Positions 21,897-59,476 of a DNA stretch of 64,000 nt are shown here, one piece after another (within the stretch, counting starts at the first letter, position 1; every line of letters starts with the position of its first letter). The notes under the pieces were generated by a model. The model was not told the DNA's origin and did no database searches. It was given only the letters and a program-made list of their open reading frames with translations. The DNA is from Escherichia coli (GTDB taxonomy: Bacteria > Pseudomonadota > Gammaproteobacteria > Enterobacterales > Enterobacteriaceae), in assembly GCF_041886205.1 (NCBI RefSeq), contig NZ_CP169029.1, one strand, 5' to 3'. A program made the position numbers and the translations under genes.

Positions 21897-22748
21897 GTGT
21901 TAATTATCGAAACCCTGCCGCTGCTGCGTCAGCAAATTCGCCGCCTGCGTATGGAAGGCAAGCGCGTGGCGCTGGTGCCTACTATGGGTAATCTGCACGA
22001 TGGCCATATGAAGCTGGTCGACGAAGCCAAAGCCCGCGCCGATGTGGTCGTCGTCAGTATTTTCGTTAACCCGATGCAGTTCGACCGCCCGGAAGATCTG
22101 GCACGTTATCCACGGACCTTGCAAGAGGACTGCGAAAAGCTAAACAAACGTAAAGTGGATTTAGTTTTCACCCCTTCGGTAAAAGAGATCTACCCGAACG
22201 GTACTGAAACCCATACTTACGTTGACGTTCCCGGGCTTTCGACCATGCTGGAAGGCGCGAGCCGTCCGGGGCATTTTCGCGGCGTTTCGACTATCGTCAG
22301 CAAGCTGTTTAACCTGGTCCAGCCGGACATCGCCTGCTTCGGTGAAAAGGACTTTCAGCAACTGGCGCTAATCCGCAAAATGGTTGCCGATATGGGCTTC
22401 GATATTGAAATTGTCGGCGTCCCGATTATGCGCGCCAAAGATGGCCTTGCGCTCAGTTCCCGTAATGGTTATCTGACGGCGGAACAACGCAAAATTGCGC
22501 CCGGTCTGTACAAAGTTTTAAGTTCAATTGCCGACAAATTGCAGGCTGGCGAGCGGGATCTTGATGAAATTATTGCCATTGCAGGGCAAGAACTGAATGA
22601 AAAAGGCTTCCGCGCCGATGATATTCAGATTCGCGATGCCGACACGTTGCTGGAAGTCTCTGAAACCAGCAAACGAGCTGTAATTCTGGTAGCCGCCTGG
22701 CTTGGCGATGCCCGCCTGATCGACAACAAAATCGTCGAACTGGCGTAA
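21897..22748 (+). CDS. panC: Pantoate-beta-alanine ligase (pantothenate synthetase)
   Basis: 283-aa ORF beginning at GTG 21897 ([10 protein letters not shown]...); HDGH motif. Confidence 0.95.
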
Positions 22749-22779
22749 TGCTTTTACTCTAAATAATTCAAGTTGCAGG

Positions 22780-39643: not shown

Positions 39644-41497
39644 ATGAAAATGACTTTGCCGTTTAAACCCCATGTGCTGGCGCTAATTTGCAGTGCCGGG
39701 CTTTGTGCCGCCTCTACCGGGCTATATATAAAAAGCCGCACAGTGGAAGCGCCTGTGGAACCGCAATCGACACAACTGGCTGTGTCTGACGCTGCCGCGG
39801 TTACGTTTCCTGCAACGGTTTCCGCACCTCCCGTAACACCCGCCGTCGTCAAATCCGCATTCAGCACTGCACAAATAGATCAATGGGTCGCGCCCGTCGC
39901 GCTGTATCCCGACGCCCTACTTTCGCAGGTGCTGATGGCATCAACCTATCCGACAAACGTTGCTCAAGCAGTGCAATGGTCGCACGATAATCCACTTAAA
40001 CAAGGCGATGCTGCTATTCAGGCGGTATCTGACCAGCCGTGGGACGCCAGCGTTAAATCACTGGTGGCCTTTCCACAATTGATGGCATTGATGGGCGAAA
40101 ACCCGCAATGGGTGCAAAACCTGGGCGATGCTTTTCTGGCCCAGCCGCAGGACGTGATGGACTCGGTACAGCGATTGCGGCAACTGGCGCAACAAACCGG
40201 CTCGCTGAAGTCATCAACCGAACAGAAAGTTATTACCACAACGAAGAAAGCTGTACCGGTAAAACAGACAGTCACGGCACCCGTCATACCATCCAATACA
40301 GTTTTAACTGCCAACCCCGTCATTACAGAGCCGGCAACAACCGTCATTTCCATTGAGCCCGCCAATCCTGATGTGGTCTATATTCCCAACTACAACCCAA
40401 CCGTGGTTTACGGGAACTGGGCCAATACTGCGTATCCGCCGGTTTATCTGCCACCACCAGCCGGAGAACCGTTTGTTGACAGCTTTGTACGCGGATTCGG
40501 CTATAGCATGGGCGTTGCTACCACGTACGCACTATTCAGCAGCATCGACTGGGACGACGACGATCATGACCATCATCATCATGACGATGATGATTATCAT
40601 CACCACGATGGCGGTCATCGTGACGGTAATGGCTGGCAACACAACGGCGACAACATCAATATCGACGTCAACAATTTCAACCGTATCACCGGTGAGCATC
40701 TTACTGATAAGAATATGGCATGGCGGCACAATCCAAACTACCGTAATGGTGTGCCCTATCATGATCAGGATATGGCAAAGCGGTTTCATCAAACCGATGT
40801 CAACGGCGGAATGAGCGCCACGCAATTACCTGCCCCAACGCGCGACAGCCAGCGTCAGGCGGCAGCAAATCAGTTTCAGCAACGAACACACGCCGCACCA
40901 GTCATTACACGAGATACCCAACGTCAGGCAGCGGCACAGCGGTTTAATGAAGCTGAACACTATGGGAGCTATGACGACTTCCACGACTTCAGCCGTCGCC
41001 AACCACTGACCCAGCAACAAAAGGACGCCGCTCGTCAGCGTTATCAGTCCGCCTCGCCTGAGCAGCGCCAGGCAGTTCGCGAGAGAATGCAGACTAACCC
41101 GCAGATCCAGCAGCGAAGAGAGGCAGCGCGTGAGCGCATTCAGTCCGCCTCGCCTGAGCAGCGCCAGGCGGTTCGCGAGAAAATGCAGACTAACCCGCAG
41201 AACCAGCAGCGAAGAGACGCAGCGCGTGAGCGTATTCAGTCCGCATCACCAGAGCAGCGCCAGGTGTTTAAGGAAAAAGTACAGCAGCGCCCACTGAATC
41301 AACAGCAACGTGATAACGCCCGCCAGCGTGTTCAATCGGCATCACCTGAACAACGTCAGGTTTTTCGGGAAAAAGTTCAGGAGAGCCGCCCACAACGTCT
41401 AAACGACAGTAACCATACTGTCAGGCTGAATAACGAGCAACGGTCAGCAGTACGCGAACGTCTCTCTGAGCGCGGAGCAAGGCGACTGGAAAGGTAA
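39644..41497 (+). CDS. yacH: Secreted DUF3300-like protein of unknown function with His/Asp-rich tract and C-terminal 32-aa tandem repeats
   Basis: 617-aa ORF with signal peptide; low-complexity DWDDDDHDHHHHDDDDYHHHDGGH; four SASPEQRQ-containing repeats. Confidence 0.85.
   Translation: MKMTLPFKPHVLALICSAGLCAASTGLYIKSRTVEAPVEPQSTQLAVSDAAAVTFPATVSAPPVTPAVVKSAFSTAQIDQWVAPVALYPDALLSQVLMASTYPTNVAQAVQWSHDNPLKQGDAAIQAVSDQPWDASVKSLVAFPQLMALMGENPQWVQNLGDAFLAQPQDVMDSVQRLRQLAQQTGSLKSSTEQKVITTTKKAVPVKQTVTAPVIPSNTVLTANPVITEPATTVISIEPANPDVVYIPNYNPTVVYGNWANTAYPPVYLPPPAGEPFVDSFVRGFGYSMGVATTYALFSSIDWDDDDHDHHHHDDDDYHHHDGGHRDGNGWQHNGDNINIDVNNFNRITGEHLTDKNMAWRHNPNYRNGVPYHDQDMAKRFHQTDVNGGMSATQLPAPTRDSQRQAAANQFQQRTHAAPVITRDTQRQAAAQRFNEAEHYGSYDDFHDFSRRQPLTQQQKDAARQRYQSASPEQRQAVRERMQTNPQIQQRREAARERIQSASPEQRQAVREKMQTNPQNQQRRDAARERIQSASPEQRQVFKEKVQQRPLNQQQRDNARQRVQSASPEQRQVFREKVQESRPQRLNDSNHTVRLNNEQRSAVRERLSERGARRLER
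41030..41413 (+). repeat. Four tandem about 96-bp in-frame repeats inside yacH (first two nearly identical)
   Basis: Direct DNA repeats read from sequence: ...cagtccgcctcgcctgagcagcgccagg(c/g)ggttcgcgaga(g/a)aatgcagactaacccgcag... recurring at about 41031, 41127, 41223, 41319. Confidence 0.85.
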
Positions 41498-41567: not shown

Positions 41568-42992
41568 TTACTTCTTCTTCGCTTTCGGGTTCGGCAGGTC
41601 GGTAATGCTACCTTCGAACACTTCTGCCGCCAGGCCCACAGACTCGTGCAGAGTCGGGTGCGCGTGGATGGTCAGTGCGATGTCTTCAGCATCACAACCC
41701 ATTTCGATTGCCAGACCGATTTCACCCAGCAGCTCACCGCCGTTAGTACCGACAATCGCACCACCGATCACACGGTGAGATTCTTTGTCGAAAATCAGCT
41801 TGGTCATACCGTCTGCGCAGTCGGAAGCGATAGCACGGCCAGAAGCAGCCCACGGGAAGGTGGCGGTCTCAAAGCTGATGCCTTTCTCTTTCGCTTCTTT
41901 CTCAGTCAGACCTACCCATGCAACTTCTGGTTCGGTATAGGCGATGGACGGGATAACTTTCGGATCGAAGTAATGTTTTTTACCGGCGATAACTTCAGCG
42001 GCAACGTGACCTTCGTGAACACCTTTATGTGCCAGCATTGGCTGACCGACGATATCGCCGATAGCAAAGATGTGCGGTACGTTGGTACGCAGTTGTTTGT
42101 CAACGCGGATGAAACCACGGTCGTCAACTTCCACGCCAGCTTTGCCTGCGTCGAGGTTTTTACCGTTCGGCACACGACCAATCGCTACCAGCACGGCGTC
42201 GTAACGCTGCGGTTCAGCGGGTGCTTTTTTGCCTTCCATCGTCACATAAATGCCGTCTTCTTTCGCTTCAACGGCGGTAACTTTGGTTTCCAGCATCAGG
42301 TTGAATTTCTTGCTGATACGCTTGGTGAAGACTTTAACGATGTCTTTGTCAGCTGCCGGGATAACCTGGTCGAACATTTCAACCACGTCAATCTGTGAAC
42401 CCAGCGCGTGGTAAACGGTGCCCATTTCCAGACCGATGATACCGCCACCCATTACCAGCAGGCGTTCTGGTACTTCTTTCAGTTCCAGCGCGTCAGTGGA
42501 GTCCCAGATACGCGGATCTTCATGCGGAATAAACGGCAGTTGGATCGGGCGAGAACCCGCTGCAATGATCGCGTTGTCGAAGTTGATCACGGTTTTACCG
42601 TTCTCACCTTCAACTTCCAGGGTGTTAGCCCCGGTGAATTTACCCAGACCGTTGACCACTTTGACTTTGCGGCCTTTCGCCATACCAGCCAGACCACCGG
42701 TCAGCTGATTGATCACTTTCTCTTTCCAGGTACGAATCTTGTCGATATCGGTTTTCGGTTCGCCGAAGACGATACCATGTTCAGCCAGCGCTTTGGCTTC
42801 TTCGATAACTTTTGCTACGTGCAGCAGTGCTTTAGAAGGGATACAGCCGACGTTCAGGCAAACACCGCCAAGGGTGTTGTAACGTTCTACGATTACGGTT
42901 TCCAGACCTAAATCAGCGCAACGGAAGGCAGCGGAGTAACCTGCGGGGCCTGCCCCAAGTACCACGACCTGAGTTTTGATTTCAGTACTCAT
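41568..42992 (-). CDS. lpd: Dihydrolipoyl dehydrogenase (E3 of PDH/OGDH/GCV)
   Basis: ORF 41568..43025; start refined to MSTEIKTQVVVLGAGPAGY (cat 42990-42992); redox CLNVGC; 474 aa. Confidence 0.96.
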   Translation of the reverse strand: MSTEIKTQVVVLGAGPAGYSAAFRCADLGLETVIVERYNTLGGVCLNVGCIPSKALLHVAKVIEEAKALAEHGIVFGEPKTDIDKIRTWKEKVINQLTGGLAGMAKGRKVKVVNGLGKFTGANTLEVEGENGKTVINFDNAIIAAGSRPIQLPFIPHEDPRIWDSTDALELKEVPERLLVMGGGIIGLEMGTVYHALGSQIDVVEMFDQVIPAADKDIVKVFTKRISKKFNLMLETKVTAVEAKEDGIYVTMEGKKAPAEPQRYDAVLVAIGRVPNGKNLDAGKAGVEVDDRGFIRVDKQLRTNVPHIFAIGDIVGQPMLAHKGVHEGHVAAEVIAGKKHYFDPKVIPSIAYTEPEVAWVGLTEKEAKEKGISFETATFPWAASGRAIASDCADGMTKLIFDKESHRVIGGAIVGTNGGELLGEIGLAIEMGCDAEDIALTIHAHPTLHESVGLAAEVFEGSITDLPNPKAKKK

Positions 42993-43039
42993 CATGACCT
43001 CTATATATTTATCTCCGGCGGTCATACCCGTCGTCTTTC

Positions 43040-43135
43040 AGGCCGCAGCGGCGTTAGCTTCACGCCCTCACCCCAGTCACTTACTTATGTAAGCTCCTGG
43101 GGATTCTGGCGCTTGCTACCTTGCTGCACCCAGAA
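43040..43135. repeat. ERIC/IRU element (inverse orientation relative to the panC copy) between aceF and lpd
   Basis: CCCTCACCCCAGTCACTTACTTATGTAAGCTCCTGGGGATTC is the reverse complement of the ERIC core. Confidence 0.8.
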
Positions 43136-43316
43136 ATCCATAGGGTATGTGAAGTAATACCCTAACCACCACCGGGTCGTTCTATCCGTCGGTATTTTAC
43201 AAAATTGTTAACAATTTTTAAACAACAAACGGCAACCGATTTGTCTATTCGCTAATAACCTCAATACATTCATGAGATTACCAGAAAAAAGCCGGCCGTT
43301 TGGCCGGCTCTTTTAC

Positions 43317-45209
43317 TTACATCACCAGGCGGCGAATGTCAGACAGCGTGTTGTTAATGATGGTAATGAAACGGGCACCATCAGCACCGTCGATCACGCG
43401 GTGGTCGAAGGAGAGAGAAATCGGCAGCATCAGACGCGGCACGAACTCTTTACCATTCCACACCGGCTCCATCGCGGACTTGGAAACGCCGAGGATAGCC
43501 ACTTCCGGCGCGTTCACAATCGGCGCGAAGTGGGTAGTACCCAGGCCGCCGATGCTGGAGATGGTGAAGCAACCGCCCTGCATTTCGCCCGCAGTCAGCT
43601 TACCGTCACGCGCTTTCTTAGAAATAGTCATCAGCTCGCGAGACAGCTCGATGATGCCTTTCTTGTTGACGTCTTTGAATACCGGAACAACCAGACCGTT
43701 CGGGGTATCCACCGCCACACCGATGTTGATGTACTTCTTCAGGGTCAGACGCTGACCGTCTTCCGACAGCGAACTGTTGAAGCGAGGCATCTGCTCAAGA
43801 GCTGCAGCAACGGCTTTCATGATGAAGACAACCGGGGTTATCTTCACATCCAGCTTACGTTTCGCCGCTTCTTCGTTCTGCTGTTTACGGAACGCTTCCA
43901 GCTCGGTGATATCGGTTTTGTCGAAGTGAGTAACATGCGGGATCATCACCCAGTTACGGCTCAGGTTCGCCCCAGAGATTTTCTGGATACGGCCCAGTTC
44001 CACTTCTTCGATTTCACCAAACTTGCTAAAGTCCACCTTCGGCCACGGCAGCATGCCTGGGATACCGCCGCCAGTCGCCGCCGGAGCTGCTTCTGCACGT
44101 TTGATAGCTTCTTTCACGTAAGCCTGAACGTCTTCGCGCAGGATACGACCTTTACGGCCAGTGCCCTTCACTTTCGCCAGGTTAACGCCAAACTCGCGTG
44201 CCAGACGGCGGATCAGCGGAGTCGCGTGAACGTAAGCGTCGTTTTCAGCAAATTCAGATTTGCCTTCCGCTTTTGCAGCCGGAGCTGCTGCCGGGGCTTC
44301 AGCTTTTGCTGCCGGAGCCGGCGCTGCCGCTTCCTGTTTCGCAGGAGCTGCAGCAGGCGCTGCGCCTTCAACTTCGAAGATCATAATCAGCGAACCAGTT
44401 TTCACTTTATCGCCAACGTTGACTTTCAGTTCCTTCACGACGCCTGCAAACGGAGCCGGAACTTCCATAGACGCTTTATCGCCTTCTACGGTGATCAGTG
44501 ACTGTTCAGCGGCAACTTTGTCGCCCACTTTCACCATCACTTCGGTGACTTCAACTTCGTCACCGCCGATATCCGGAACGTTAACTTCTTTCACGCCAGC
44601 TGCTGGTGCAGGAGCCGCTGCCGGAGCCGCTTCCTGTTTAGCCGCCGGAGCTGCCGCGCCTGCTTCACCCGCGACTTCGAAGACCATAATCAGCGAGCCG
44701 GTAGACACTTTGTCACCCACGTTCACTTTGATCTCTTTCACGGTGCCAGCAAACGGAGCCGGAACTTCCATAGAAGCCTTGTCGCCTTCTACGGTGATCA
44801 GCGACTGTTCAGCTTCAACTTTATCGCCAACTTTCACCAGGATTTCGGTCACTTCAACTTCGTCGCTGCCGATATCCGGAACGTTAACGTCTTTTGCCGC
44901 TGCAGCCGCTGGTGCTGCTGCCGGAGCTGCTTCTTTCTTCTCTTCTGCCTGAGCAGGTGCAGCGTCTGCTGCACCGTCGGCGGAATCGAAAATCATAATC
45001 AGTGCGCCGGTCTGGGTTTTATCGCCAACAGAGACTTTGATCTCTTTAACAATACCCGCCTGCGGAGACGGAACTTCCATAGAGGCTTTGTCGCCTTCTA
45101 CGGTGATCAGCGACTGTTCGGCTTCAACTTTGTCGCCCACTTTGACCAGGATCTCGGTGATTTCAACTTCATCAGCCCCGATGTCCGGTACTTTGATTTC
45201 GATAGCCAT
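43317..45209 (-). CDS. aceF: Pyruvate dehydrogenase E2 (dihydrolipoamide acetyltransferase) with three lipoyl domains
   Basis: 630-aa ORF; three repeated lipoyl domains (…[10 protein letters not shown]…) separated by Ala/Pro-rich linkers; catalytic DHRxxDG. Confidence 0.96.
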
Positions 45210-45223
45210 TATTCTTTTACCTC

Positions 45224-59261: not shown

Positions 59262-59470
<209 letters not shown>

Positions 59471-59476
<6 letters not shown>

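Follow-up and report, generated by a model that had tools for sequence, protein, structure and literature searches.

Repeats of the ERIC family (ERIC/IRU/RU-1) are described in reviews as MITEs characterised by TA termini, terminal inverted repeats and TA duplications. Known copies are around 127 bp long, with both the ERIC1R and ERIC2 sites falling in a conserved central core; they are imperfectly palindromic, forming a long RNA hairpin, occupy transcribed intergenic sites and are present in multiple copies per genome. Long-form ERICs, with internal insertions of ~70 bp, were reportedly distinguished by Wilson and Sharp in 2006. In Yersinia, ERICs alter the stability of neighbouring mRNAs through RNase E, in a manner that depends on their orientation, according to the summaries of De Gregorio 2005 given in PMC2229807 and PMC10969869.

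The window analysed here is the whole 64,000 nt stretch of E. coli DNA, which is reversed relative to the K-12 numbering and 22 kb of which is 100% identical to E. coli strains wlxctx60 and 6EVA. On its minus strand lie aceF (43317-45209, from the gene call) and lpd (41568-42992, the translation of which starts MSTEIK), separated by a spacer of 324 bp, the same length as in K-12. An ERIC element had been noted at 43040-43135 within this spacer; the gene coordinates agree with this placement and the repeat is genuine, that range constituting the central 96 nt of a full-length copy at 43024..43148 (minus strand; 125 nt plus TA-containing ends), as delimited by alignment with RU-1, nhmmer and identity with K-12. 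The published 127 nt E. coli ERIC/RU-1 sequence (PMC2759123) is colinear with positions 43022-43150, matching at 100 of 127 sites (78.7%) with no indels, hence the element is fairly diverged from this E. coli reference. A search with nhmmer using the ERIC profile assigned it 112.8 bits, and found no third ERIC copy in the window. The ERIC2 primer site is present with one mismatch and that of ERIC1R, as its reverse complement, with two (primer sequences from PMC3696847). Aligned with its own reverse complement the element shows 75% identity, making it an imperfect palindrome; it has the termini TA-CCC...GGG-TA, with the right terminus, GGGTAT, 31 nt ahead of the lpd start codon. In its length, core, palindromic structure capable of forming a long RNA hairpin, TA termini, transcribed intergenic position and membership of a multicopy family, found by megablast at a median of five places per E. 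coli genome, it resembles known ERICs. This is, then, a full-length ERIC of the usual kind, a miniature transposable element lying within the untranslated 5' leader of lpd.

The copy in K-12 MG1655 is identical to that in the window; hence the element itself is already known, and it belongs to a well described family. The K-12 RefSeq annotation has no repeat feature in the aceF-lpd spacer, and none of the papers covered by the literature search connects an ERIC to lpd or aceF.

The first-pass annotation assigned the repeat to the leader and promoter region of lpd, of which only the former holds. The promoter scan of the spacer detected a single sigma-70-like promoter, which is specific to lpd, at 43194..43222 (minus strand), with a -35 hexamer TTTAAA, a 17 nt gap and a -10 hexamer TAAAAT; none was found within the ERIC. 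The lpd promoter is known to be ArcA-regulated and to lie 195 nt from the lpd ATG (PMC2759082), a distance that places the start site at window position 43187, seven bases past the -10 hexamer. The repeat therefore occupies positions +40 to +164 of a 195 nt leader, with both the promoter and the start site upstream of it. It also forms part of the transcript that reads through pdhR-aceEF-lpd, where it comes after the aceF intrinsic terminator, a hairpin (GAGCCGGCCaaacGGCCGGCTTTTTT) at 43282..43313 (minus strand) that the terminator scan and the sequence itself place right behind the aceF stop codon. At the other end of the leader, the lpd Shine-Dalgarno sequence AGAGG (43002-42998) and the start codon (42992-42990) together span 42990..43002 on the same strand. 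The terminus of the ERIC, GGGT-ATG-A, also creates an ATG in the lpd frame (43023-43025, minus strand), 11 codons upstream of the true start, which accounts for the call of a 485 aa lpd open reading frame. This ATG is probably unused, judging from its lack of a Shine-Dalgarno sequence and its location in the closing part of the predicted hairpin.

Folding of the leader region with the ERIC (201 nt, from 42980 to 43180) gave a minimum free energy (MFE) of -81.8 kcal/mol (z = -5.5 relative to shuffled sequences), and the base stem of the predicted hairpin forms outside the repeat. Its 5' arm, CCGGUGG, is at +13 to +19 (43169..43175, minus strand), and its 3' arm, CCGCCGG, at 43015..43021 (minus strand), closes the hairpin around the ERIC ~20 nt ahead of the Shine-Dalgarno sequence; both arms were defined from MFE folds, comparison between species and RNAalifold. 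The ERIC-free E. coli allele, folded from the O157:H7 strain SS17, has a 78 nt leader with the same base stem in the MFE fold, enclosing a loop of 31 nt. Among the Enterobacterales matches listed, each of the 84 unique ERIC-less leaders retains at least six of the seven base-stem pairs, with the stem being exactly CCGGTGG/CCGCCGG in 58 of them, whilst the length of the loop ranges from ~25 to ~170 nt. An RNAalifold consensus of seven ERIC-containing leaders, drawn from four genera, nests 36 ERIC pairs in the invariant base stem, with compensatory changes at 14 of 43 pairs. The 5' untranslated region of lpd thus has a predicted hairpin with a base stem conserved across the Enterobacterales; this, together with its repeated occupation by ERICs in one orientation, is the one mildly new result.

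As the ERIC is palindromic, it is predicted to lengthen the hairpin already there and to leave the initiation region unaffected. The unpaired probabilities of the Shine-Dalgarno sequence and AUG are 0.52 and 0.10 in the E. coli leader with the ERIC and 0.52 and 0.08 in that without it, and the first 12 nt are predicted to be equally single-stranded in both alleles, with the proviso that such thermodynamic folding takes no account of co-transcriptional and protein effects. Scanning the spacer and the ERIC-less leaders against Rfam 15 produced only sub-threshold matches of the level expected by chance, and no ERIC or lpd leader family. One of these weak matches, at 43077 to 42977 on the minus strand (window 42977-43077), is to the Shigella chromosomal sRNA CssrA, with E = 0.003 and 26 bits where the gathering score is 93; as the match covers part of the ERIC, namely its right half, the CssrA family may include ERIC-derived sequence.

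Within E. coli, 5,423 of 5,426 complete genomes carry one of two lpd leaders, with the ERIC present in 3,432 and absent from 1,991, so that the species is cleanly biallelic at this locus in the ratio 63:37. K-12 and the window strain are of the former type; O157:H7 and B2-type strains, such as the UTI89-like 'clone D i14', are of the latter. The ERIC-free loop (GGGCGUCAU...ACGUCAGACCC) resembles those of Klebsiella, Serratia and others, a likeness that identifies it as the ancestral type. However, the flanks of the two alleles differ in sequence, hence the ERIC allele did not arise by mere insertion of the repeat in the ERIC-free loop: the ancestral 31 nt loop has instead been replaced, and a target-site duplication is unreadable in E. 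coli.

Each allele also occurs in a divergent Escherichia lineage. The leader of E. albertii, including the ERIC, is identical to that in the window at 195 of 195 positions, despite 62 differences at the 475 third codon positions of lpd, whilst 'E. coli' SCPM-O-B-8794, with 61 differences at these 475 positions, has an ERIC-free leader identical to that of O157. Such base-for-base sharing of both alleles with lineages ~13% diverged at third positions of lpd points to introgression, to strong constraint or to a polymorphism of long standing. There is a local valley of low divergence around the leader, from about -700 to +400, and constraint, codon-bias effects and past recombination are inseparable as causes of the conservation of the leader. 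The high frequency of each allele in E. coli argues that neither is strongly deleterious. The pair of leaders constitutes a natural experiment on whether an ERIC changes the expression of a gene that serves three enzyme complexes.

Species-representative genomes scanned for the lpd N-terminus provided at least 120 Enterobacterales loci. The lpd promoter is recognisable in 114 of the 120 among the matches listed, and 11 of these 120 species have an ERIC in the leader loop, all of them facing the same way with respect to lpd. These are E. albertii, the divergent 'E. coli' E69, Raoultella planticola, three Serratia, three Erwinia, Yersinia aldovae and, more weakly, Pantoea sp. IMH. The insertion junctions are genus-specific. 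In Serratia, comparison of the empty site of sp. H1w with filled sites reveals a clean TA duplication, and one TA in the leader is occupied by two different ERIC subtypes. Among the matches listed, ERICs have a density of 0.44 per kb in aceF-lpd spacers and 0.11 per kb in the other non-coding DNA of the same loci, although this ratio is crude, ignoring kinship and reflecting only ~5-6 independent events, which also lie behind the orientation bias. The recurrence of same-orientation ERICs in one loop across several genera bears on the site choice, or the survival, of MITEs. A more ambitious synthesis would treat the leader as an unannotated conserved hairpin, with an apical loop in which palindromic inserts, ERICs among them, have landed repeatedly and in one orientation, the two Escherichia alleles being an old and possibly selected polymorphism that tunes Lpd relative to AceEF; taken as a whole, we regard this as improbable.

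A number of other features were observed in these spacers. Strongly self-complementary inserts of ~50-135 nt that are not matched by the ERIC profile are found in the leader loops of Pantoea (six loci), Hafnia (two), Edwardsiella (two) and three further loci, and may represent other MITE families. ERICs with the same orientation are found in the pdhR-aceE spacer, about -4960 from the lpd ATG, in Pseudescherichia vulneris, Klebsiella oxytoca and Kosakonia sp. S29, a position at which K-12 lacks one. Citrobacter sp. MGH106 and an Enterobacter MAG have a 46 nt leader (CCCGGTGGACGACGGGTATAAATTAAGAGG) without the 3' arm of the base stem. The sequence GACGACGGGTAT, right after CCCGGTG in Citrobacter sp. 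MGH106, was considered as an ERIC remnant and discarded, as the ancestral GGTGGACGATGGGCG with one SNP and a deletion explains it equally well.

The other ERIC in the window lies between panC, which ends at 22748 on the plus strand, and the convergent rpnC. Previously given as 22780-22950, its measured extent is 22753..22949 (plus strand; nhmmer and RU-1 alignment), such that it starts 5 nt past the panC stop codon. It is of the long form: folding and alignment identify a 70 nt insert of three hairpins at 22798..22867 (plus strand), between ...GAGTGA and AATCCCC, with a fold of -31.3 kcal/mol (z = -4.3), and once this is removed the remainder is 90.3% identical to RU-1. A defined internal site of insertion is a likeness to the long-form ERICs shown by this partner, not by the aceF-lpd element. 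The ERIC in the lpd leader of Serratia oryzae also has an insert, of 73 nt, at the same internal site; its hairpin layout is the same as that of the panC insert, with a different sequence and compensatory changes in hairpin 1. The panC-rpnC ERIC is absent from K-12 and present in O157:H7. Its 70 nt insert occurs once per genome in 615 of the 5,426 E. coli genomes (~11%), and the 901 bp panC region is matched at 80% coverage or more in 427 genomes.

The two copies are in opposite orientations, as the first-pass annotation had recorded, with inverted arms at 22868-22906 and 43067-43105. The latter, on the minus strand, is the conserved ERIC core and the sole stretch in which the aceF-lpd element closely matches its partner: the arms are 39 nt long with 97% complementarity, and include one perfect run of 36 nt. 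There are exactly two occurrences in the window of a 32 nt core sequence, CCCCAGGAGCTTACATAAGTAAGTGACTGGGG, one at 22871-22902 (plus strand) and the other at 43071-43102 (minus strand), against a chance expectation of none from 100 shuffles. The two copies are 75% identical over 125 aligned nt, and this only after the 70 nt insert has been removed from one of them.

The proposal that this pair could be a substrate for homologous recombination, inverting the 20 kb panC-lpd segment, draws on their inverted arrangement and on those 36 identical bases. The minimal processing segment for RecBCD-dependent recombination in E. coli was reported by Shen and Huang in 1986 to be ~23-27 bp; the perfect run is just above this, and the shared homology is at the lower limit of the length usable in this species. 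Outside the core, however, the copies are only 60-80% identical and interrupted by the 70 nt insert. A synthetic inversion junction, running from the 3' end of panC through the left half of the ERIC and the core into the right half of the copy at lpd, and on into lpd, was found in none of the 5,426 complete E. coli genomes at a coverage of 80% or more, the best match having 55% coverage and representing the panC half alone, whereas at least 60 genomes contain the 22 kb interval with both copies colinearly and with 100% coverage. The number of genomes with both repeats has this 60 as its lower bound and 615 as its upper; K-12 has only the lpd copy, O157:H7 only that at panC, and with the lpd copy in 3,432 genomes and the panC insert in ~615, most E. 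coli are unable to undergo the inversion. Its product would leave lpd behind panC, parted from its promoter, with the promoter and ArcA-regulated region facing rpnC, and should be counter-selected. Hence neither the alignment of the copies nor the search of assemblies bears out the proposal, which is already largely refuted for the population; the pair is not a practical substrate for inversion, and we consider such a role very improbable. With no demonstrable risk of rearrangement, and being of a catalogued type of repeat, the element is of little import in this respect; the useful outcome is its placement in the leader of lpd, enclosed by a conserved hairpin, together with the division of E. 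coli into two distinct leader alleles.

There remains its influence on lpd, which had been suggested to be independent of the upstream pdhR-aceEF transcript. With a probability of roughly 0.7, we favour the interpretation that the ERIC is a tolerated passenger in a loop that is structurally permissive, with an effect on lpd that is at most modest and post-transcriptional. It is transcribed both from the lpd promoter, starting at 43187, and as part of the read-through transcript, and takes the place of the apical part of the ancestral leader hairpin. The palindromic RNA would form a long hairpin stacked on the base stem CCGGUGG/CCGCCGG, so that the Shine-Dalgarno sequence, the AUG and the unpaired 5' end would be no different from those of alleles without the ERIC. 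Given this unchanged predicted accessibility, any effect would come through mRNA decay or processing, not transcription initiation or ribosome access, and would probably be small. Action on transcription at the DNA level, with the repeat serving as a roadblock, as a site for protein binding or as an internal promoter, is very improbable: the repeat is within 40 nt of the start site, and reviews record promoters or IHF sites in some bacterial MITEs, but the scan recovered only the known upstream promoter, a review table contains no DNA motif for ERIC, and the same promoter serves the 1,991 E. coli genomes without the repeat, as well as most Enterobacterales among the matches listed.

A more serious competitor, which we nonetheless think unlikely, is that the ERIC is a functional post-transcriptional module altering the stability or processing of lpd transcripts. 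This might operate through an RNase E site exposed in the 3' inverted repeat of the ERIC, or a processing point between aceF and lpd, and would tune the supply of Lpd against AceE and AceF, uncoupling lpd from aceEF, as Lpd also serves 2-oxoglutarate dehydrogenase and the glycine cleavage system. The precedent is the orientation-dependent effect, through RNase E, of the Yersinia ERICs on flanking mRNA, as recounted in the sources above. Like those of Y. enterocolitica, the aceF-lpd ERIC is co-transcribed, lies between two read-through cistrons and has a consistent orientation in independent leader insertions; however, the effect in Y. enterocolitica was described for elements adjoining stop codons at the 3' ends of genes, whereas that studied here is beyond the aceF terminator in the 5' untranslated region of the downstream gene. 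The single orientation of all 11 leader ERICs in other species, among the matches listed, and the invariant leader of E. albertii, set against 13% divergence at third positions of lpd, are hints of constraint or selection that sit less easily with a passenger, as does the coexistence of two alleles each shared with a divergent lineage. Against this, the orientation bias derives from ~5-6 independent events and the conservation may stem from the low-divergence valley or recombination. Furthermore, accessibility of the initiation region is predicted not to change, and a global map of RNase III sites (PMC5371410) includes one in the pdhR-aceE region, but not the aceF-lpd ERIC. The tolerated passenger remains our preferred account of the element.

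The same map (PMC5371410) also includes a site associated with ahpC-ahpF, at 639695, but this provides no precedent for cleavage of an ERIC by RNase III, since it falls outside the K-12 ERIC at 639512-639632. This ERIC, in the ahpC-ahpF spacer, has the opposite orientation relative to transcription, and the RNase III site is in a separate hairpin downstream.

Repeats of other types are also found in the window. Four tandem 96 nt units (41003-41386) are contained within an open reading frame adjoining lpd, in the yacH region, and three units of ~300 nt in aceF (44311-45222) correspond to its three lipoyl domains. REP-like GCCGGATGCGGCG repeats are present at 59296-59475 and 32079-32142.
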